A stretch of 61,124 bases of DNA, filler included. It is 4 parts of 4 records of this genome, joined end to end, with 100 filler letters (N's around TTAATTAATTAA, not from the genome) between each part and the next. Parts side by side here need not be neighbours in the genome. Positions count along the whole stretch, not along the records: positions 1 to 28,899 come from SRR20825010_794; 3 more parts are not named here. One strand, given 5' to 3'. Shown piece after piece: positions 10,578-23,967 of this stretch. The position numbers were made by a program, and so were the translations under genes. Each line of letters begins with the position of its first letter. Position 1 is the stretch's first letter. The notes under the pieces were generated by a model that had not been told where the DNA came from, did no database searches, and was given only the letters and a program-made list of their open reading frames with translations.

Positions 10578-11369
10578 CTACAACGCATTCACCAAATTCC
10601 CTTTGTTCTCTTTTAGTTTTTCGGCAATACTGTCCCAAAGCTCGATTCGGAATTGGAGCGCTTGCTTGCTGTATTGTAAAACATCGTTCCACTTTTTGTC
10701 GTCGGTACCGCAAAGTGCCTTAATCATGCGCAATGCCAAAGGGCCGTGCTCGTCCCCATCCAATTCAATATGTCTTTTGAGGTAATATTCCAGTTTTTTG
10801 TAGTTGCTCGCACCTTTTTCCCCAGATTGCTCAATGATGCCCAAGAACATATCGGGAATCAAGTCTTCGCGACCAAAGGTAAAGGCAGCCGCAATACGAT
10901 GCGGTTGTTGACTATTGATGACCTGGAAAGTAAATTGAAGAAAATTCTTTTCGGCCCGATTGAGTTCTGCCCCTTCAATTTGGTTTGAAATCGTTTTTAA
11001 ATCAGTGAAAGACGAAATGATGGCTTCAGCCTTCTGGGTGTCCGCCTGCACCTCCTGCATGGCATCGAGGTACATTTCAAAATGACTTTTGGGTTCTCCC
11101 TCCTCGTTGAAATCGCTCTCTTCCTCCAGCACAATCTCATTAATGAACCGTGCCACCGAAGTATCGTCGGCGGGGTGCCATGGCAAGCTCACACAGGTCA
11201 AATGTTGCTGCAGGGCTTTTAAAAGTGACATAAAATCCCAAACGGCGTAGATATGGCTCTCCATGAAGGTTTTAATATCCTCAACGGATTCCAATTGAGC
11301 ATACAATGGGTGGTTCTTTAATTTTTCACGAAGGGGTTGAAGCTCGTGCTCCAAGTTTTCAATTTTCAT
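10578..11369 (-). CDS. DUF3050 heme-oxygenase-like (putative diiron) protein; alternative TTG start at 11402
   Basis: HPLY, FMESHIYAVWDFMSLLKALQ, RFINEIVLEEESD, SHFEMY, FTFGREDLIP, RHIELDGDEHG. Confidence 0.85.
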   Translation of the reverse strand: MKIENLEHELQPLREKLKNHPLYAQLESVEDIKTFMESHIYAVWDFMSLLKALQQHLTCVSLPWHPADDTSVARFINEIVLEEESDFNEEGEPKSHFEMYLDAMQEVQADTQKAEAIISSFTDLKTISNQIEGAELNRAEKNFLQFTFQVINSQQPHRIAAAFTFGREDLIPDMFLGIIEQSGEKGASNYKKLEYYLKRHIELDGDEHGPLALRMIKALCGTDDKKWNDVLQYSKQALQFRIELWDSIAEKLKENKGNLVNAL

Positions 11370-11403
11370 GGCAACTATTTTGTTCTCTTCTTCTTTACGC
11401 AAT

Positions 11404-12450
11404 TTATCGGATGTTGGTTTCGGGCAATAGATCCCTTTCTTCCCAATTCTTGATCCATTTGGCCATCAATTCGGCCCAATCATCACGGTCGTTCAAACAG
11501 GGAATATGGATGTAATCACCCCCTCCAGCTTCTTGAAACTGCTCCTTTCCCTCCATGGCGATCTCTTCCAAAGTCTCCAAACAATCACTGACGAATGCTG
11601 GGGTGATCACGGCCAGTTTTTTGATACCTTCTTCCCCCAAGCGCTCAAACTCTTTGTCCGTGAAGGGTTGCAACCAAGGGTCGCTTCCCAATCTGGATTG
11701 GAACGAAGTGCTCACTTTATCCTCTGGCAGGCCAAGTTCCTTTTTTACCAGCTCGGTAGTATCATAACATTGGTGCCTGTAGCAGGTTTGGTGGGCCACA
11801 GAATTCGTCTTGCAACAAGTTCCGTTCAATTGGCAATGGAACTTGGTAGGGTCCGATTTTCTAATATGCCTTTCGGGAATTCCATGATAGGAAAATAGAA
11901 TATGGTCGTAGTCAAATCCCTGTAAACCTTCGGCAATACTTTTTGACAATATTTTAATGTAATCTGGGTTACTGTAAAAAGCGGGCAATGTGGTTATGTG
12001 CATCTCGGGAAAATCCTGTTGTTGCACTTCAAGTGCTTTTACAACGACTGTTTCGTAGGACGACATGGCATAATGTGGATACAATGGTACCAAGAACACC
12101 TCATCGACCCCTTTCTCCTTTAATTCTTGTAAACCTTCTTTAATGGACCCCGAACCGTAACGCATCCCAAGGGCCACGGGAAGGTCTGTATGTTTTTGCA
12201 CTTTTTTCGCGAATCTTTCGGAAATAATGATCAACGGAGACCCTTCATCCCACCAAATTTTGGAATAGGCCTCCGCGGATTTCTTGGGACGGGTATTTAA
12301 TATAATCCCCCGTACAATGATGTTCCTTAACACAGGATTGACGTCGATAACGCGTTCGTCCATCAAAAATTCATCCAAATATGGCTTTACATCCTTTGCG
12401 GTAGGGCTATCGGGAGATCCCAAATTGACCAATAAAACTCCTTTTTTCAC
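11404..12450 (-). CDS. hemH: Ferrochelatase
   Basis: GVLLVNLGSPDSP, MRYG, LYPHY, FSYHGIP, FQSR, W-L-Q-P, AFVSDCLETLEEI, PCLND. Confidence 0.97.
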   Translation of the reverse strand: MKKGVLLVNLGSPDSPTAKDVKPYLDEFLMDERVIDVNPVLRNIIVRGIILNTRPKKSAEAYSKIWWDEGSPLIIISERFAKKVQKHTDLPVALGMRYGSGSIKEGLQELKEKGVDEVFLVPLYPHYAMSSYETVVVKALEVQQQDFPEMHITTLPAFYSNPDYIKILSKSIAEGLQGFDYDHILFSYHGIPERHIRKSDPTKFHCQLNGTCCKTNSVAHQTCYRHQCYDTTELVKKELGLPEDKVSTSFQSRLGSDPWLQPFTDKEFERLGEEGIKKLAVITPAFVSDCLETLEEIAMEGKEQFQEAGGGDYIHIPCLNDRDDWAELMAKWIKNWEERDLLPETNIR

Positions 12451-17651: not shown

Positions 17652-17780
17652 GTATTGTTGATTATCAAATTTATCAATAATACCAATGTGTTATGTCATT
17701 TTAATCAAAAATAAATCATAAAATAACAGCCGTAGTTATTTATAGTACCGCTAGCGTTATTTTTTGACCTATAAGCCTGT

Positions 17781-17788
17781 TATTTTTG
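17781..17788 (+). promoter_or_regulatory. Bacteroidota -7 promoter element (TAnnTTTG) for hemA
   Basis: TATTTTTG about 20 nt upstream of the hemA ATG at 17809. Confidence 0.45.
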
Positions 17789-17808
17789 TGCTGCGATTTA
17801 TATCCTTT

Positions 17809-19065
17809 ATGAGGGACTACCATATTTCAAAACATAATTCCTTCTATGCCGTTGGGTTAAGTTACAAGAAGGCGGATGCAGAGGTGAGAGGAAAGTTCAG
17901 TCTGGATGTTCCTGCCATTGACCATATTTTGGGCAAGGCCAAGGAAATCGGAATTGATGGTCTTCTGGCCATCTCTACTTGTAACCGTACAGAACTCTAC
18001 GGTTTTGCACAACACCCCTACCAGCTTATCAAATTACTTTGCGACGAGACCCATGGAACGGTTGAAGAGTTCCAGGAAGTGGCCTATGTGTACAAAAATC
18101 ACGATGCCATTTCGCATATGTTCAAAGTGGGAACCGGTCTTGACAGTCAGATTTTAGGTGATTTTGAAATCATCAGCCAAATTAAGCAAGGGTTTTATCG
18201 TGCCAAAAAGTATGATATGGCCAATCCGTTCATGGAGCGCTTGTGCAATGCTGTGATTCAGGCCAGCAAGCGTATCAAAAACGAAACGGAAATATCTTCT
18301 GGTGCCACATCCGTAGCTTTTGCTTCGGTAAAATATATTTTGGACAATGTTGATGACATTTCCGACAAGAACATCCTCTTGTTCGGAACGGGGAAAATTG
18401 GAAGAAACACCTGCGAAAACTTGGTAAAGCACTCCAATAATTCCCATATTACCTTGATCAACCGAACTCGGGAAAAAGCGGAGGACATTGCAGGCAAATT
18501 TCAGTTGACCGTTAAGGATTATGGCGATTTGCAAACCGAAATACGTAAAGCAGATATTCTTGTGGTTGCCACGGGTGCCCAATTACCCACCGTTTCCAAA
18601 GCACTCATCTATCCCAAAAAACCATTATTGGTGTTGGATTTGTCAGTTCCCAAAAACGTATCGGACGATGTGAAGGAACTGGACAACGTGACCTTGGTGC
18701 ATTTGGATCAACTCTCACAGATTACCGACGAAACCTTGGCCAAACGAAAAGAATACGTTCCCAAAGCGGAAGCTATCATAGAAAAAGTAAAAAAGGATTT
18801 CCTGAAATGGCTGGAAACCCGCAAGTTTGCCCCTGTGATCAATGCACTCAAGGACAAACTGAACACGATGAAAACCGAGGAAATCGATTTTCAGACCAAA
18901 AAAATTGAAGGATTCGACCAAATTCAGGCAGAAATCATCTCAGACCGGATCATTCAAAAAATCACCAAGCAGTTTGCCAACCACCTGAAGAGCAACGAGG
19001 TCGATACCGATGATAGCTTGGAGCTGATCCAGAAAGTTTTTCAGCTAGAACTACACTCCAAATGA
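17809..19065 (+). CDS. hemA: Glutamyl-tRNA reductase
   Basis: STCNRTE, GLDSQILGDFEI..Q, GATSV, GTGKIG, NRT, DLSVPKNV. Confidence 0.97.
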   Translation: MRDYHISKHNSFYAVGLSYKKADAEVRGKFSLDVPAIDHILGKAKEIGIDGLLAISTCNRTELYGFAQHPYQLIKLLCDETHGTVEEFQEVAYVYKNHDAISHMFKVGTGLDSQILGDFEIISQIKQGFYRAKKYDMANPFMERLCNAVIQASKRIKNETEISSGATSVAFASVKYILDNVDDISDKNILLFGTGKIGRNTCENLVKHSNNSHITLINRTREKAEDIAGKFQLTVKDYGDLQTEIRKADILVVATGAQLPTVSKALIYPKKPLLVLDLSVPKNVSDDVKELDNVTLVHLDQLSQITDETLAKRKEYVPKAEAIIEKVKKDFLKWLETRKFAPVINALKDKLNTMKTEEIDFQTKKIEGFDQIQAEIISDRIIQKITKQFANHLKSNEVDTDDSLELIQKVFQLELHSK

Positions 19066-19988
19066 GCAAAATAATCCGCATTGGAACCCGCGACAGCGAA
19101 TTGGCGCTGTGGCAAGCCACCACCGTACAACAAAAGTTGGAAGCACTTGGGTACGACACCATTTTGGTTCCGACCAAATCTTTGGGAGACCAAGTGCTGG
19201 ACAAGCCACTTTACGAGTTGGGCGTTACGGGCATTTTTACCAAAACTTTGGATGTTGCCCTGCTCAAAGGAGACATTGACATTGCGGTACACTCCATGAA
19301 GGATGTACCCACCCAACTGCCCAAAGGAATAGTTCAAGTAGCGGTTTTGGAACGCGCGATGACCTACGATATTTTGGTGCACAAAGGGTCAGCCTTTTTG
19401 GAAAATGACCAGCCCGCAACCATCGCGACTGGAAGTTTGCGGCGAAAAGCGCAATGGTTGAACAAATATCCCAACCACAAAGTGGTTGATCTCCGGGGAA
19501 ATGTCAACACCAGATTGCTGAAACTCATTGAAAACGATTGGGAGGGTGCCATTTTTGCTCAGGCCGGATTGGAACGCATCAAACTATTGCCCAAAGATGC
19601 CATTCAATTGGATTGGATGATTCCCGCTCCAGCTCAAGGCGCCATGTTGGTCGTGGCCAAGGAAGAAGACGATTTCACCAAAGAAGCATTGGGCAAACTC
19701 AACCATCCCGAAACCGAGATGGGAACCACCATCGAGCGTGAATTTTTACGCACCTTGGAAGGAGGTTGTACCGCACCAATAGGTGCTTTGGCGCAAATAA
19801 AAGACCAAACGGTTCATTTTGAAGGTGTTGTTTTCTCTTTGGATGGCAAGCAGAAAATCGATATCAAAAAAGAAGTGAAATTGTCCGAAGCCAAAGACCT
19901 TGGAAAAATAAGTGCCGAAGAGGTATTGCAAAAAGGGGGCGATAAATTGATGCAGGAAATCAGAAATGAAAACAGTGCTCTCCACTAA
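19062..19988 (+). CDS. hemC: Hydroxymethylbilane synthase
   Basis: IGTRDSELALWQ, IAVHSMKDVP, TGSLRR, LRGNVNTRL, PAPAQGA, LEGGCTAP. Confidence 0.97.
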   Translation: MSKIIRIGTRDSELALWQATTVQQKLEALGYDTILVPTKSLGDQVLDKPLYELGVTGIFTKTLDVALLKGDIDIAVHSMKDVPTQLPKGIVQVAVLERAMTYDILVHKGSAFLENDQPATIATGSLRRKAQWLNKYPNHKVVDLRGNVNTRLLKLIENDWEGAIFAQAGLERIKLLPKDAIQLDWMIPAPAQGAMLVVAKEEDDFTKEALGKLNHPETEMGTTIEREFLRTLEGGCTAPIGALAQIKDQTVHFEGVVFSLDGKQKIDIKKEVKLSEAKDLGKISAEEVLQKGGDKLMQEIRNENSALH

Positions 19989-20676
19989 AATACTGACCCC
20001 ATCACAAAAGGAACTCTTTCTAAATTCCAGTTTGGGATTGGTGGAGTACGATGCCTTAAAAATCGAACCGCTGGACGTGAAGATTCCCTTCAACTACTCC
20101 AACTATATTTTTACCAGCAAGAATGCCGTGAAGGTATTTTTGAATCAATCCGAGCGTCTGGAGAAATCAAAGTTCCGCGCCTACTGTGTGGGGGAAAAAA
20201 CAAAAGCACATTTGGAAGAAAATGGCGTAAAAGTGGTTGAAATGGCCCAAAATGCATCAGAATTGGCTGAAATTCTTGTGAAAAATCATCAAAACGAGTC
20301 TTTCCTATTTCTTTGTGGCAACAAGCGAAGGGATGAACTCCCTGAAACTTTGACAAAAAATAACGTTCAGTATAAAGAGCTGGAAGTCTACCGAACCCAT
20401 TTAAATCCAAAGGCGTTTCAAAGGGATTTTGATGGTGTTCTGTTTTTCAGTCCAAGTGGCATCCGAAGCTATCTTTTGGAAAATTCATTAGGGAACAGCA
20501 TCTTGTTCTGTATCGGAGAGACTACAGCTGCTGAAGCTCAAAAACATTCAAAAAATATAATTACAGCTAACAAACCAACCGTGGAAAATGTGTTGGTGCA
20601 AGCGATAAAAGAATTATCGATTCGTGGGGATGCTGAGCGGAGTCGAAGCGCCTTTCAAAATCGAAAAAACAATTAA
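19966..20676 (+). CDS. hemD: Uroporphyrinogen-III synthase
   Basis: FTSKNAV, CVGEKT, CG..RRDELP, EVYRT, FFSPS, CIGETT; position between hemC and hemE. Confidence 0.92.
   Translation: MKTVLSTKILTPSQKELFLNSSLGLVEYDALKIEPLDVKIPFNYSNYIFTSKNAVKVFLNQSERLEKSKFRAYCVGEKTKAHLEENGVKVVEMAQNASELAEILVKNHQNESFLFLCGNKRRDELPETLTKNNVQYKELEVYRTHLNPKAFQRDFDGVLFFSPSGIRSYLLENSLGNSILFCIGETTAAEAQKHSKNIITANKPTVENVLVQAIKELSIRGDAERSRSAFQNRKNN
20632..20650. repeat. REP-like unit GCTGAGCGGAGTCGAAGCG inside the hemD 3' end
   Basis: Exact 19/19 reverse-complement match to intergenic 28727-28745. Confidence 0.75.
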
Positions 20677-20737: not shown

Positions 20738-21763
20738 ATGATAAAAAATGACCTGTTCCTAAAAGCTTTAAAAGGTGAAACCGTTGAACGTCCGCCCGTG
20801 TGGATGATGCGACAGGCAGGGCGCTATTTGCCCGAGTTTATGGAACTCCGTAAAAAATACGATTTCTTTACCCGCTGCCAGACACCGGAATTGGCTTCCG
20901 AGATTACCGTACAGCCCATTCGCCGATACGGAATGGATGCCGCTATTTTGTTCAGCGATATTTTGGTGATTCCCCAGGCTATGGACATCGAAGTGCAGAT
21001 GAAACCAAATTTTGGACCTTACCTGCCAAACCCTATCCGTTCGCAAGCTGATTTGGACAACGTAATCGTGCCCGATATCCAGGACACTTTGGGCTATGTG
21101 ATGGAGGCCATAACCATGACCAAGGAAAAATTGAATGATGAAATTCCCTTGATCGGGTTTGCAGGTTCTCCTTGGACATTGCTTTGTTACTGTGTCGAAG
21201 GCCAAGGAAGCAAGAGTTTTGACAAGGCCAGAGGATTTTGCTTTACCCAACCGGAAGGTGCACACGAATTGCTTCAAAAAATCACGGATACCACCATCGC
21301 CTACCTAAAAGCTAAAGTCAAGGCGGGTGTCAATGCCGTTCAAGTATTTGATTCGTGGGGCGGGATGCTCTCGCCTCGGGATTACCAAGAATTTTCTTGG
21401 AAATACATTCAGCAAATCGTGGATGCATTGAAGGACGAAGCACCCGTAATCGTTTTTGGAAAAGGATGCTGGTTTGCGTTGAAAGAAATGGCCAACTCCG
21501 GGGCTTCCGCTGTAGGCGTGGATTGGACGTGTTCCGCCCAAAATGCAAGGTACTTGACAGGGGGCAATGTTACCCTTCAAGGTAATTTTGATCCCGCCCG
21601 CTTGCTTTCGCCTCCATCAACCATCAAGGAAATGGTCACGCAAATGATTCGTGATTTTGGCAAGGATAAATATATTGTAAACTTGGGTCACGGTATTTTG
21701 CCACATATTCCCGTAGAGCACGCAAAAGCATTCATCGATGCGGTTAAAGAGTACCAAGAGTGA
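20738..21763 (+). CDS. hemE: Uroporphyrinogen decarboxylase
   Basis: [47 protein letters not shown]. Confidence 0.97.
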
Positions 21764-22251
21764 ACCTTTTTGCGGTACTGAAACGGGTTGATTTTAAAAA
21801 TATACTGAAAGTTATTTTTATAGGACTGAGCCGTCCTCACTTTATAGGGCCAACCATTAAAGCCACCAAGGATTGCATCGCCATATCGACCGATAATTAT
21901 GGGAGACTCCATCATAAAAATGGTCCGGCAAATGCTTTTAGACACGCCTTTTGGAATTATTTGATCGCCAAACGGTGTTTTAGATGGCAGCAAAATGAGG
22001 AAACTGTTTTGGCCTGGGCCAAAAAAGTGACGGATTGGCACGAGGATTCATTTCCGAACAAAAAATTGGAAAAGGCAATGGATTTGCACAACAACGAAGC
22101 GGGTCGTTTCATTTTTGAGCAAAATACCGATAAATCAGAAGAAGAAGTCATCGAACTATTGAGGCAAATGGCTTTGGAATCCATCAAAATTGATGAGAAC
22201 TCAACACTTTCTGAATACAAAAACCGAATGGTACATATTTTGGAACAATGA
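21760..22251 (+). CDS. DUF6973-like / minimal-Wnt (Lipocone-type) small protein
   Basis: [25 protein letters not shown] overlaps the hemE stop (GTGA) and its stop overlaps the hemF start (ATGA). Confidence 0.8.
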
Positions 22252-23150
22252 AAGATAGATTTTACACATACATTCAACAATTACAGGACGCTATTACCTC
22301 CAAACTGGAAGAACTGGACGGAACCGCCAAGTTTCAACAAGATTTTTGGGAACGTGAAGAAGGTGGCGGTGGCAGGACACGCGTCATTGAAAATGGGGCC
22401 GTTTTTGAAAAGGGCGGTGTCAATATTTCCAAAGTCCATGGGCCACTGCCCAAAAGTATGCAGAGCTACTTTGGAGTGGAAGATGTGGATTTCTTTGCCT
22501 GTGGCCTCAGTTTGGTAATCCATCCCAAGAGCCCTATGGTGCCGACCGTGCACGCCAATTGGCGTTATTTTGAGATGTACGACAAAGATGGAAACATTGT
22601 GGATCAATGGTTTGGTGGCGGTCAAGACCTTACCCCCTATTATTTGTTCGATGAGGATGCAGCCCACTTTCACGCGGTTTGTAAAAAAGCTTGTGATAGT
22701 CATAATCCAGCGTTTTATCCTGCTTATAAAAAGAAGTGCGACGAATACTTCTGGAACGCCCATCGAAATGAAGCCCGCGGTATAGGCGGGTTGTTCTTTG
22801 ATTATTGCAAAGCGACCGAAGAGACCAGTATGGAAGATTGGTACAATTTTGTTGCCGAGGTCGGGGACAGTTTTTTGGATGCCTACGCACCTATTGTTGA
22901 AAAGAGAAAGGACCTTCCCTATTCCAAAGAGCAGCGCGACTGGCAAGAAATTAGACGGGGCCGTTATGTTGAGTTCAATCTCGTGCACGATAAAGGCACC
23001 CTGTTCGGCCTAAAAACCAACGGCCGTATTGAAAGTATTTTGATGAGTCTGCCTCCGCACGTACAATGGCGATATGACCATCATCCTGAAAAAGGAAGTG
23101 AGGAAGAACAGTTGATAGCAGTGCTGCAAAATCCAAAAAATTGGGTTTAA
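22248..23150 (+). CDS. hemF: Oxygen-dependent coproporphyrinogen-III oxidase
   Basis: FEKGGVN, HP..P.VPTVHAN.RYFE, WFGGGQDLTP, RGIGGLFFD, RRGRYVEFNL..D.GT.FGL, ESILMSLP. Confidence 0.97.
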   Translation: MKDRFYTYIQQLQDAITSKLEELDGTAKFQQDFWEREEGGGGRTRVIENGAVFEKGGVNISKVHGPLPKSMQSYFGVEDVDFFACGLSLVIHPKSPMVPTVHANWRYFEMYDKDGNIVDQWFGGGQDLTPYYLFDEDAAHFHAVCKKACDSHNPAFYPAYKKKCDEYFWNAHRNEARGIGGLFFDYCKATEETSMEDWYNFVAEVGDSFLDAYAPIVEKRKDLPYSKEQRDWQEIRRGRYVEFNLVHDKGTLFGLKTNGRIESILMSLPPHVQWRYDHHPEKGSEEEQLIAVLQNPKNWV

Positions 23151-23178: not shown

Positions 23179-23967
23179 ATGAGACAGAAAATTTACCAAA
23201 TAGATGCATTTACCAGCCAGACCTTTGGCGGAAATCCTGCCGCGGTCTGTATTTTGGATTCGTGGTTGAGTCCAGAATTAATGCAAAAAATCGCCCAGGA
23301 GAACAACCTGGCGGAAACCGCCTTTGCCGTAAAGAAAGACGGGCAATATGAAATTCGCTGGTTTACCCCCGAAGTGGAAGTGGACCTTTGCGGACACGCG
23401 ACACTGGCAACTGCCTTTGTGCTCTTTCATTTTTATGAATTTGATGAAAATACCATTCAGTTTTATTCAAACCGAAGTGGAAACCTCAACGTGAACAAGG
23501 CAGACAATGGTTGGTTGACTTTGGATTTTCCAACCGATAATCTGATTGCCATTCAAAATATTGAAGAGTTGGACACGGCCATCGGGCAAGCCCCAATAAA
23601 AACCCTGAAGGGCAAAACGGATTATATGATGGTCTATCAATCACAAAAGGAAATTGAAGCCATTGAACCCAACCATCATTTGCTTGAAAAATTGGATGTT
23701 CGTGGCGTTATCGTAACCGCACCTGGGGACGAAGTGGATTTTGTTTCCCGTTTTTTTGCTCCCGCTTGCGGCATTCCCGAAGATCCTGTGACCGGTTCCG
23801 CCCACACTTCGTTATCGCCATATTGGTCCGAAGTTTTGGACAAAACCAAAATGACGGCCAAACAACTTTCCCAGCGAGGAGGTGACTTGGTCTGCGAATA
23901 TTTGGGCGAGCGCGTTAAAATTTCCGGTAAGGCCGTGCTTTATTTAACTGGGGAAATCGATATATAA
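23179..23967 (+). CDS. PhzF/YddE family isomerase
   Basis: DAFT…GGNPAAV, ENNLAETAF, RWFTP..EVDLCGHATLA, SRFFAP..GI.EDPVTGSAH. Confidence 0.92.
   Translation: MRQKIYQIDAFTSQTFGGNPAAVCILDSWLSPELMQKIAQENNLAETAFAVKKDGQYEIRWFTPEVEVDLCGHATLATAFVLFHFYEFDENTIQFYSNRSGNLNVNKADNGWLTLDFPTDNLIAIQNIEELDTAIGQAPIKTLKGKTDYMMVYQSQKEIEAIEPNHHLLEKLDVRGVIVTAPGDEVDFVSRFFAPACGIPEDPVTGSAHTSLSPYWSEVLDKTKMTAKQLSQRGGDLVCEYLGERVKISGKAVLYLTGEIDI

Follow-up and report, generated by a model that had tools for sequence, protein, structure and literature searches.

The Lipocone superfamily, with its SAA-Wnt clade (SAA, serum amyloid A) and the proteins called Min-Wnt, was described by Burroughs, Nicastro & Aravind (eLife 2025, PMC12419801), and what is said of its chemistry here draws on parts of that paper. 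The core carries a histidine in the second helix, a glutamate in the third and an aspartate in the fourth, and a sNxxGR motif defines the SAA-Wnt clade; this pattern is strongly preserved in Min-Wnt and has been lost in animal Wnts. From the analogy with TelC (lipid II) and PTDSS1/2 it is inferred there that Lipocone proteins attack phosphate-linked lipid head groups, and Min-Wnts that lack a signal are predicted to hit carrier lipids from inside the cell. Here we analyze a relative, gene X, found in a stretch of DNA of 61,124 nucleotides, filler included (the window), of which positions 1 to 28,899 come from the record SRR20825010_794. X is an open reading frame (ORF) of 163 amino acids (aa) at 21760..22251 on the plus strand, lying between the heme synthesis genes hemE and hemF, and it encodes a bacterial Min-Wnt/DUF6973 protein of the SAA-Wnt clade in which the His, Glu and Asp residues (H/E/D) are intact. 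Our tentative reading, made by analogy, is of a vertically inherited cytoplasmic Min-Wnt/Lipocone protein, tied to constitutive housekeeping operons, that would probably work on the inside of the membrane, its target being a lipid or polyprenyl phosphate head group.

X shares with the described Min-Wnts a score above the PF22322 cut-off, a soluble cone built of five helices, and both the H/E/D positions and the sNxxGR motif. It differs from them in its setting. The forms presented in PMC12419801 belong to conflict systems (polymorphic toxins, secreted toxins, and antivirals fused to DUF3892 or to a beta-meander), whereas the clade of X is stand-alone, signal-less, vertically inherited and found in housekeeping operons. 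The statistics file of that paper lists Min-Wnt under 'Biological conflict'. The original prediction, made from the letters of the window, took such proteins to be discussed mostly as secreted effectors; this is roughly right, although intracellular Min-Wnts that lack a signal and act against viruses are predicted in PMC12419801 as well. Its main text nowhere uses the words porphyrin, tetrapyrrole or coproporphyrinogen, and URO-D, uroporphyrinogen, coproporphyrinogen, HemE, HemF and Muricauda are absent from six of its seven supplementary files (all but file 3). Full-text literature searches, with subscription-only papers outside their scope, found no paper containing 'DUF6973', and found 'Min-Wnt' only in the Lipocone paper and its preprint; a search of the same scope combining Flavobacteriaceae with hemE, hemF or operon gave nothing relevant, as judged from the listing alone. 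The Min-Wnt family is known; the vertically inherited, operon-embedded cytoplasmic clade and the slot that it occupies in the hem operon appear to be undescribed.

The single experimentally studied relative of X that we found is BteO, a type VI secretion system (T6SS) effector of Bacteroides fragilis (PDB 9UU0; He et al., PNAS 2025, PMC12541434). It aligns to the X profile with E = 0.0012 over X residues 55-121, the two proteins sharing NAFRH, followed in BteO by IDLLNNQIGR and in X by the corresponding ten-residue motif at residues 107-116. According to the parts of the paper used here, BteO binds OmpA C-terminal domains through a helical groove, and the changes R143A, H144A, H167A, E168A, D187A and D191A abolish both toxicity and binding. 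By alignment, R143/H144 and D191 correspond to R61/H62 and D108 of X; H167/E168 most likely correspond to H94/E95, a pair that was not cleanly aligned by HMMER. BteO is a delivered periplasmic toxin with an immunity protein, BtiO, and OmpA as its target, whereas X is predicted to be cytoplasmic, has no immunity gene and lies in a hem operon.

Metazoan Wnts (PF00110) are the best structural matches of X, and nine of the ten residues at positions 107-116 are identical in human Wnt-7a (PDB 8tzo_A). A 9/10 match to the animal motif had been predicted with Wnt1 as the example; the figure holds for Wnt-7a. The Pfam wnt model matches X only locally (residues 78-124) and below its cut-off, with E = 0.03 and 14.3 bits against a gathering score of 20.3, and X further differs from animal Wnts in being 163 aa long, in having only two cysteines (C39 and C73) and in having no secretion signal. 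Wnts carry large cysteine-rich inserts. These inserts and the lipidated hairpin are absent from X, hairpin inserts with a lipidated serine being specific to Metazoa, and X keeps the H/E/D residues that animal Wnts are described as having lost (PMC12419801, in part).

SAA (PF00277) and its prokaryotic counterparts belong with X in the SAA-Wnt clade by fold, the model described below aligning to SAA with Z-scores of 6.6-7.6 over 92-95 residues. They have a shorter fifth helix, according to parts of PMC12419801, whereas in X almost the entire length aligns with the Wnt core. TelC, a lipid II phosphatase toxin, and the phosphatidylserine synthases PTDSS1/2 share the active-site logic proposed for the superfamily in the same source, but are members of other Lipocone families, TelC being a secreted type VII secretion system (T7SS) toxin and PTDSS1/2 integral membrane proteins. 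Foldseek, VIA-align and profile searches gave no sequence or structural match of X to TelC or PTDSS1/2.

A Min-Wnt protein encoded between hemE and hemF

X, its junctions with the flanking genes, its motifs and the flanking genes themselves are placed as follows.

21760..22251, plus strand: X, DUF6973/Min-Wnt (Lipocone, SAA-Wnt clade), GTG start, TGA stop; PF22322 E 8e-45
21760..21763, plus strand: GTGA overlap of the X start codon with the hemE stop codon (translational coupling), read in the sequence
22248..22251, plus strand: ATGA overlap of the hemF start codon with the X stop codon, read in the sequence
21931..21957, plus strand: NAFRHAFWN, residues 58-66, second core helix; N58, R61, H62 and W65 invariant in 22/22 orthologues
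22036-22044, plus strand: WHE, residues 93-95, read in the sequence
22039..22044, plus strand: H94-E95, end of the third core helix, at the Lipocone glutamate position; E95 invariant, H94 at least 90% conserved
22078..22107, plus strand: the ten-residue motif, residues 107-116, fourth core helix, with the Lipocone aspartate D108 and the sNxxGR motif
20738..21763, plus strand: hemE, uroporphyrinogen decarboxylase; PF01208 (URO-D) E 1.3e-134
22248..23150, plus strand: hemF, oxygen-dependent coproporphyrinogen III oxidase; PF01218 E 6e-135

Pfam assigns residues 21-138 of X to DUF6973 (PF22322) with 151.9 bits against a cut-off of 27, and gives no SAA (PF00277) match at E <= 1. NCBIfam has no model matching X or X', the gene of a sister clade that is described below. 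Clusters retrieved from the ESM Atlas are of DUF6973 (0.97-0.98), with SAA clusters (0.82-0.84) as weak leads only, and the Atlas contains no structure of X. The search for homologues returned 410 at E <= 0.001. In the alignment of 22 orthologues 19 positions are invariant, including R61, H62, E95, M107, D108, H110, N111, N112, G115 and R116. Twelve residues (R61, H62, W65, T91, H94, E95, M107, D108, H110, N111, N112 and G115) are common to X, X' and the long paralogues, so X shares its chemistry or mode of binding with the whole family. The equation of DUF6973 with Min-Wnt rests on the motifs, the fold and the Pfam match.

An AlphaFold2 model of X built on the 22 orthologues (pLDDT 92.1, pTM 0.86) is all-helical with a short C-terminal hairpin, the helices spanning residues 26-52, 56-76, 80-97, 102-121 and 127-139. 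Searched against the PDB with Foldseek, the model has Wnts as all of its top eight matches, with probabilities of 0.87-1.00 and non-significant E-values of 0.02-0.5; the assignment of the fold rests on VIA-align Z-scores together with the motifs, and not on the Foldseek E-values. VIA-align superimposes 129-152 of the 163 residues on Wnt3, Wnt3a, Wnt7a, Wnt8 and WntD with a root-mean-square deviation of 2.5-3.2 and Z-scores of 11.8-16.9, the lowest value being that for Drosophila WntD and the other chains giving 13.7-16.9. Unrelated chains reach at most 4.8. The soluble four-helix cone that characterizes the SAA-Wnt clade, its fifth helix packing between the second and the fourth, appears to be present in the model, the helix packing being judged through the structural alignments.

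The protein is hydrophilic, with a grand average of hydropathy of -0.52 and a top 19-residue Kyte-Doolittle window of 1.29. Hydropathy windows reveal no membrane-spanning segment and no signal-like hydrophobic stretch, and the first 30 residues contain no cysteine and thus no lipobox. The N-terminus is basic and amphipathic, with five K/R and one D/E in the first 32 residues. Pfam finds a single-domain protein with no delivery domain. There is no adjacent immunity gene: the neighbors in the window are hemE and hemF, and over 80 loci of relatives the only recurrent extras are genes for an EI24-like protein and a GNAT acetyltransferase. Judged from its sequence, X is predicted to be a cytoplasmic, soluble, signal-less and stand-alone protein.

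Much of what the original prediction read from the sequence agrees with these results. The 163-aa ORF with its GTG on the hemE stop and its TGA on the hemF ATG is confirmed by reading the sequence and by the ORF list; NAFRHAFWN, WHE and the motif at residues 107-116 lie where they had been placed; and the minimal-Wnt/DUF6973 identity with intact H/E/D is borne out by Pfam, by the fold and by conservation in 22/22 orthologues. The amphipathic N-terminus and the lack of a signal peptide, delivery domain and immunity gene had been called correctly, and the comparison of an AlphaFold model with Wnt and SAA that had been proposed as a check gives the Z-scores reported above.

Two other possibilities were considered and rejected. 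A chance ORF or decaying passenger does not fit with the Pfam score, the invariant residues or the ratio of nonsynonymous to synonymous substitution rates (dN/dS) of 0.12. A mis-called start is rejected because start codons stand at the equivalent position in 30 loci (ATG in 22/30, GTG or TTG in the rest) and the N-terminus begins with a conserved M-N; the GTG at 21760 is therefore taken as the start of X.

Genomic context of X and its sister clade

We sampled one genome per genus for 201 genera of Flavobacteriaceae, counting a match as strong if it was full-length with E <= 1e-22. X-like matches were found in 58 genera, of which 55 are strong and 3 are weak matches to paralogues. Among the best 30 loci, from 30 genera, X lies directly 3′ of hemE in every one, and hemF falls inside the 1.5-kb flank in 29; in the thirtieth it is 1.4 kb further on by coordinates. 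The first start codon of X overlaps the hemE stop codon or lies no more than 12 nt from it in 28/30. At the other end X abuts or overlaps hemF in 14 of these loci and is followed by an insert of 540-1404 nt in 15, hemF being beyond the flank in the one remaining. For 22 of the other 25 strong matches, coordinates place X upstream of hemF, on its strand and no more than 2 kb away; another match lies at the end of a contig, and for two HemF was not among the matches listed. An independent scan of GTDB species genomes yielded 80 named loci, among them Flagellimonas/Muricauda, Croceitalea, Maribacter, Aequorivita, Aquimarina, Dokdonia, Salinimicrobium, Autumnicola, Eudoraea and Poritiphilus, and in 80/80 X follows hemE inside the hem operon. 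The survey of gene neighborhoods that had been suggested as a further check thus finds the order hemE-X-hemF conserved.

HemF was found in 174 of the 201 genera and strong X in only 55, and X is therefore an accessory gene and not a core member of the hem operon. The median dN/dS among Flagellimonas pairs is 0.124 for X, against 0.019 for HemE and 0.035 for HemF, a ratio of 3.5-6, although these are rough values with dS of ~1.3 near saturation. In pairwise comparisons of protein distance over 75 genomes, the Spearman coefficient is 0.58 between X and HemE, 0.58 between X and HemF and 0.62 between HemE and HemF, and the mean divergence is 0.55 for X versus 0.17 and 0.20 for HemE and HemF. X is under purifying selection and vertically inherited with the operon, yet loosely constrained.

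The gap between hemE and hemF is a variable slot. Three genes recur in it, X, a gene for an EI24/CysZ-like membrane protein (PF07264 E 4.8e-35) and one for a GNAT acetyltransferase (PF13302 E 4.6e-21), distributed over the 80 named loci as follows.

35 of 80 loci: X alone among the three recurrent slot genes
17 of 80 loci: X and the EI24/CysZ-like membrane protein
11 of 80 loci: X, then GNAT
16 of 80 loci: GNAT, then X
1 of 80 loci: X, EI24 and GNAT

Among the 20 genera examined that lack X, chosen as those whose HemF is most like that of the window, the slot holds GNAT alone in 8, EI24 alone in 3 and both in 7, and is empty in 2, where hemE abuts hemF. A 903-aa secreted peptidase, assigned by eye to an M16-like family, lies between X and hemF in Maribacter-like loci (L090:5592-8303), and the slot therefore tolerates large unrelated insertions. 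Another occupant is a 214-aa membrane protein with no Pfam family. A RayT/IS200-like ORF with the N-terminus MKLETLE.G.YYHIFNRGIN is also found in the slot (L003 ~1593-2777; L037:3275-4900). It is in frame with hemF without an intervening stop in L037, and appears to be fused to GNAT in L003. Open frames of 495-553 aa for hemF occur in several genomes, and the RayT/IS200-like ORF may account for these too.

The EI24/CysZ-like slot protein is an integral membrane protein of ~250 aa that recurs with or without X (L026, L037, L039-L042, L045-L047, L050 and others) and is absent from the window; its closest NCBIfam model is CysZ, with a score of 77 bits, which is under the cut-off of 140. The GNAT is RimJ/RimL-like and stands before or after X (L004, L022, L031-L048, L056-L062, L069-L097). 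In Maribacter-like loci (L090) the GNAT stop codon overlaps the X start codon, and the cluster representative P0123 (338 aa) is a natural fusion of X with GNAT. The nearest genome used for comparison, G001, encodes an X that is 99% identical to that of the window; it has a single DUF6973 gene, and searches of it for the EI24 family and for relatives of the slot GNAT found neither.

Outside the Flavobacteriaceae, a search of 401 Bacteroidota genomes gave full-length matches only in that family and in one other family of the same order, each of the remaining matches being the C-terminal domain of a longer protein. Across the order, a sample of 301 genomes from 18 families was distributed as follows.

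Weeksellaceae (f2, the second family): match in 41 of 41 genomes
Flavobacteriaceae (f1): match in 4 of 43 genomes; 24 of the 43 are of one genus, with 0 of 24
Family f61: match in 2 of 4 genomes; long forms, open frames of 311-326 aa
Family f64: match in 1 of 21 genomes; long form, open frame of 354 aa

The 14 other families of this sample gave no match to X. The second family was identified as Weeksellaceae through protein names (Chryseobacterium, Kaistella), and its gene, X', is present in 71/81 genomes and 42/49 genera. All of the best 30 X' loci read fba-accD-X' on the same strand; what lies downstream of X' differs between loci in both length and strand. Three Chryseobacterium genomes were checked for the distance to hem genes, and in these hemE is 140-235 kb away from X' and no HemF was found. 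Among 15 additional, more divergent loci of Weeksellaceae, the gene follows gltX in six, from three genera, and accD in four; in two it is near accD on the opposite strand, and three have other neighbors. An AI-2E-family transporter gene (PF01594) is interposed between gltX and the X-clade gene in two of the six gltX loci (L182 and L184, genus g380). A large multi-pass membrane protein, SpmA/SpmB-like by eye, is encoded 3′ of X' in Chryseobacterium and a few other genera (L152-L154, L179, L188, L194). X-clade genes often adjoin a gene for an inner-membrane transporter-like protein, though not consistently.

A quick maximum-likelihood tree places X and X' together against 21 long paralogues with a Shimodaira-Hasegawa-like approximate likelihood ratio test (SH-aLRT) support of 94 (not starred). 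X' forms one clade (99, starred) on a long stem (1.11), and the monophyly of the hem-linked group has a support of 43. In other Flavobacteriales and Bacteroidota the paralogues nearest to X are 310-350 aa long with DUF6973 at the C-terminus (L197 and L198 in f61, L199 in f64). The N-termini of three, P0226, P0236 and P0245, were read; each has a lipoprotein-type signal followed by a helical linker, and by sequence these three look like a secreted, toxin-like form.

The rest of the hem operon in the window has the following genes.

17764-19065, plus strand: hemA, Pfam GlutR_N; upstream part of the operon
19062-19988, plus strand: hemC, Pfam Porphobil_deam; upstream part of the operon
19966-20676, plus strand: hemD, Pfam HEM4; upstream part of the operon
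23179-23967, plus strand: PhzF-family isomerase-like gene between hemF and hemB; PF02567 E 1.5e-57, TIGR00654
23995-24984, plus strand: hemB, ALAD E 6.2e-140; downstream part of the operon

The order is therefore hemA-hemC-hemD-hemE-X-hemF-(PhzF-like)-hemB, with a gene for an AraC-type regulator divergent upstream. The PhzF-like gene, a further non-canonical member of the operon, is found between hemF and hemB in many, though not all, relatives. The ferrochelatase gene lies 6 kb from the operon on the opposite strand; this hemH (11407-12450, minus strand) is followed on the same strand by a gene for a DUF3050 protein (10581-11402; PF11251 E 1.7e-99, without an NCBIfam model), and the two (10581-12450) may form one unit. 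Between 17400 and 25200 a scan for sigma-70 promoters, with Bacteroidota promoters outside its scope, gave 17 promoter-like sites against 12.8 +/- 3.9 expected by chance, and one for intrinsic terminators gave 13 terminator-like sites against 10.7 +/- 3.0, both counts being at chance level. Eight metatranscriptome runs contained a small part of the hemE-X-hemF stretch (shares of 0.05-0.14). Contigs of four of these runs, at a likeness of at least 90%, cover parts of hemE and hemF of relatives, and none covers X; because X diverges faster than its neighbors, this is uninformative on its transcription.

Proposed function and the alternatives

We propose that R61/H62, H94/E95 and D108/H110/N111-N112, located in the mouth of the five-helix cone, would attack a phosphate-linked head group. 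The head group would be that of a lipid or polyprenyl carrier, approached on the inner side of the membrane, by analogy with TelC and PTDSS1/2 and in keeping with the family-wide prediction, and the basic amphipathic N-terminus could dock the protein there. The position in the hem operon would set the amount of X, through co-transcription and translational coupling with housekeeping enzymes, rather than mark it as a step of heme synthesis. On this reading the X clade is always a tightly coupled passenger of a constitutive biosynthetic operon, namely hem in Flavobacteriaceae and fba-accD or gltX in Weeksellaceae.

A number of observations weigh against this proposal. We know of no biochemical activity for any DUF6973 or Min-Wnt protein. 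The enzymatic reading of Min-Wnt is a family-wide prediction in the parts of PMC12419801 used here, whereas BteO is described as non-enzymatic in those of PMC12541434, and by analogy with BteO the 'catalytic' residues of X could form a protein-binding groove. All 110 of the Flavobacteriaceae orthologue loci fetched (30 and 80) are in the hem operon, and the overlaps with hemE and hemF suggest stoichiometric co-production. Two of the three settings of the clade touch tetrapyrrole precursors, since the product of the GltX reaction is the substrate of HemA. The X-GNAT fusion in P0123 and the coupling of GNAT to X point to a GNAT-linked partner. Finally, R116 is replaced by M in 93% of X', and H51 and G48 are invariant only in hem-linked X; judged from such sequence differences, X and X' may not share a function.

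Several of these points are equally what would be expected if X were a dedicated accessory factor of heme synthesis in Flavobacteriaceae, binding or chaperoning a porphyrinogen between HemE and HemF or tuning the pathway, a role that X would have taken on once it was established in the hem operon. We regard this as unlikely, though it is the alternative that survives best. It accounts for the invariable location, for the overlaps in the window and the tight hemE-X junction in 28/30 loci, for the invariance of H51 and G48 in the hem-linked clade alone, and for the linkage to gltX in three Weeksellaceae genera; moreover SAA, a relative by fold, binds a hydrophobic ligand, and its retinol-bound structure 6py0 aligns with X at Z 6.8. 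Against it, the presence of X does not track the pathway. Strong X occurs in 55/201 genera when HemF occurs in 174/201, and hemE directly abuts hemF in 2/20 of the genera lacking X. The slot accepts genes as unrelated as those for the M16 peptidase, the RayT-like transposase and the 214-aa membrane protein, the dN/dS of X is several times that of HemE and HemF, and its core residues do not differ from those of the secreted paralogues.

The sister clade also bears on this question, being unlinked to hem genes and persisting where no tetrapyrrole pathway was found. The 81 Weeksellaceae genomes divide into 66 with both X' and HemE, 5 with X' only, 7 with HemE only and 3 with neither, and two of these last three are only 56% and 83% complete. 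In the five genomes with X' only, a Pfam model search found URO-D in none and ALAD in one (G600). The other four, G601, G616, G653 and G640, are each 99% complete and keep the X-clade gene, with URO-D and ALAD both not found. One of them, G601, has the gltX-X arrangement, and the gltX link there therefore cannot concern heme. These four genomes are the main evidence against an obligatory heme function of the clade, although X' has diverged from X at several conserved positions and perhaps in function. A prediction of a complex of HemE, HemF and X scored 0.00 against a mark of 0.34, was run without controls and did not use our alignments, and counts neither way.

The original prediction had X as a component of heme synthesis, and this part of it is not supported, given the patchy occurrence, the variable slot, the location of the Weeksellaceae clade elsewhere and the four genomes without detected URO-D or ALAD. 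A dedicated heme role in Flavobacteriaceae, perhaps acquired only there, is possible but not supported by the data. A particular version of it, which we consider improbable, is that the Flavobacteriaceae X has been recruited into tetrapyrrole synthesis, either to hold the oxidation-prone coproporphyrinogen between HemE and HemF or, jointly with the EI24-like protein and GNAT, to link the soluble steps to the membrane, with the clade-specific H51 as a ligand contact.

It is also quite unlikely, in our estimate, that X is a non-enzymatic binding protein in the manner of BteO, its groove of R61/H62, H94/E95 and D108 clamping a loop of a cytoplasmic partner and so regulating it. The alignment of BteO to the X profile covers the motif region, the alanine changes that abolish its toxicity and its OmpA binding are at its RH, HE and D residues, and its groove is also where the immunity protein binds (PMC12541434, in part). 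Animal Wnts, the best structural match, likewise act by binding, and are called inactive in the parts of PMC12419801 consulted. The label 'non-enzymatic', however, leaves Lipocone chemistry possible for BteO, which was assayed for peptidoglycan hydrolase and amidase only, according to the parts of PMC12541434 used here. The strict invariance of small polar residues, N111, N112 and G115 among them, across X, X' and the paralogues is also more typical of an active site than of interfaces that meet different partners.

Least probable of all, and in our view very unlikely, is that X is an intracellular conflict effector, acting in abortive infection or dormancy and merely parked in housekeeping operons. 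The contexts of Min-Wnts are enriched for biological conflict (p given as 0.0, Figure 6-source data 1 of PMC12419801), signal-less Min-Wnts are predicted antiviral effectors in the same paper, X has its core residues in common with secreted lipoprotein paralogues, and it is patchy in Flavobacteriaceae and evolves faster than its neighbors. Yet X has no fusion to a DUF3892-type sensor and no partner genes typical of defence, is present in single copy in G001, and with PADLOC gives only a chance-level Cas11d match (E 0.004, 15.6 bits), X' giving none. Defence genes normally lie in variable islands and are mobile. The position of X, by contrast, is fixed over 55 genera and its divergence tracks that of HemE and HemF, and X' is near-universal in Weeksellaceae at one locus.

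Implications for the Min-Wnt family

Until now the minimal Wnts of bacteria have been portrayed almost exclusively as weapons or effectors of immunity, and the X clade behaves otherwise. It provides a non-toxic and genetically tractable entry to the ancestral role of the Wnt/Lipocone active site. The flavobacterial hem operon for its part has a defined variable slot, occupied by X, the EI24/CysZ-like protein and GNAT. If the action on a lipid carrier that we propose is true, X would be the first housekeeping Min-Wnt enzyme. If instead it acts on porphyrinogens or on the heme enzymes, it would be a new factor in a textbook pathway, and were it a working part of tetrapyrrole synthesis, this would be the first metabolic function of the Wnt core fold, distinct from conflict and from signaling.

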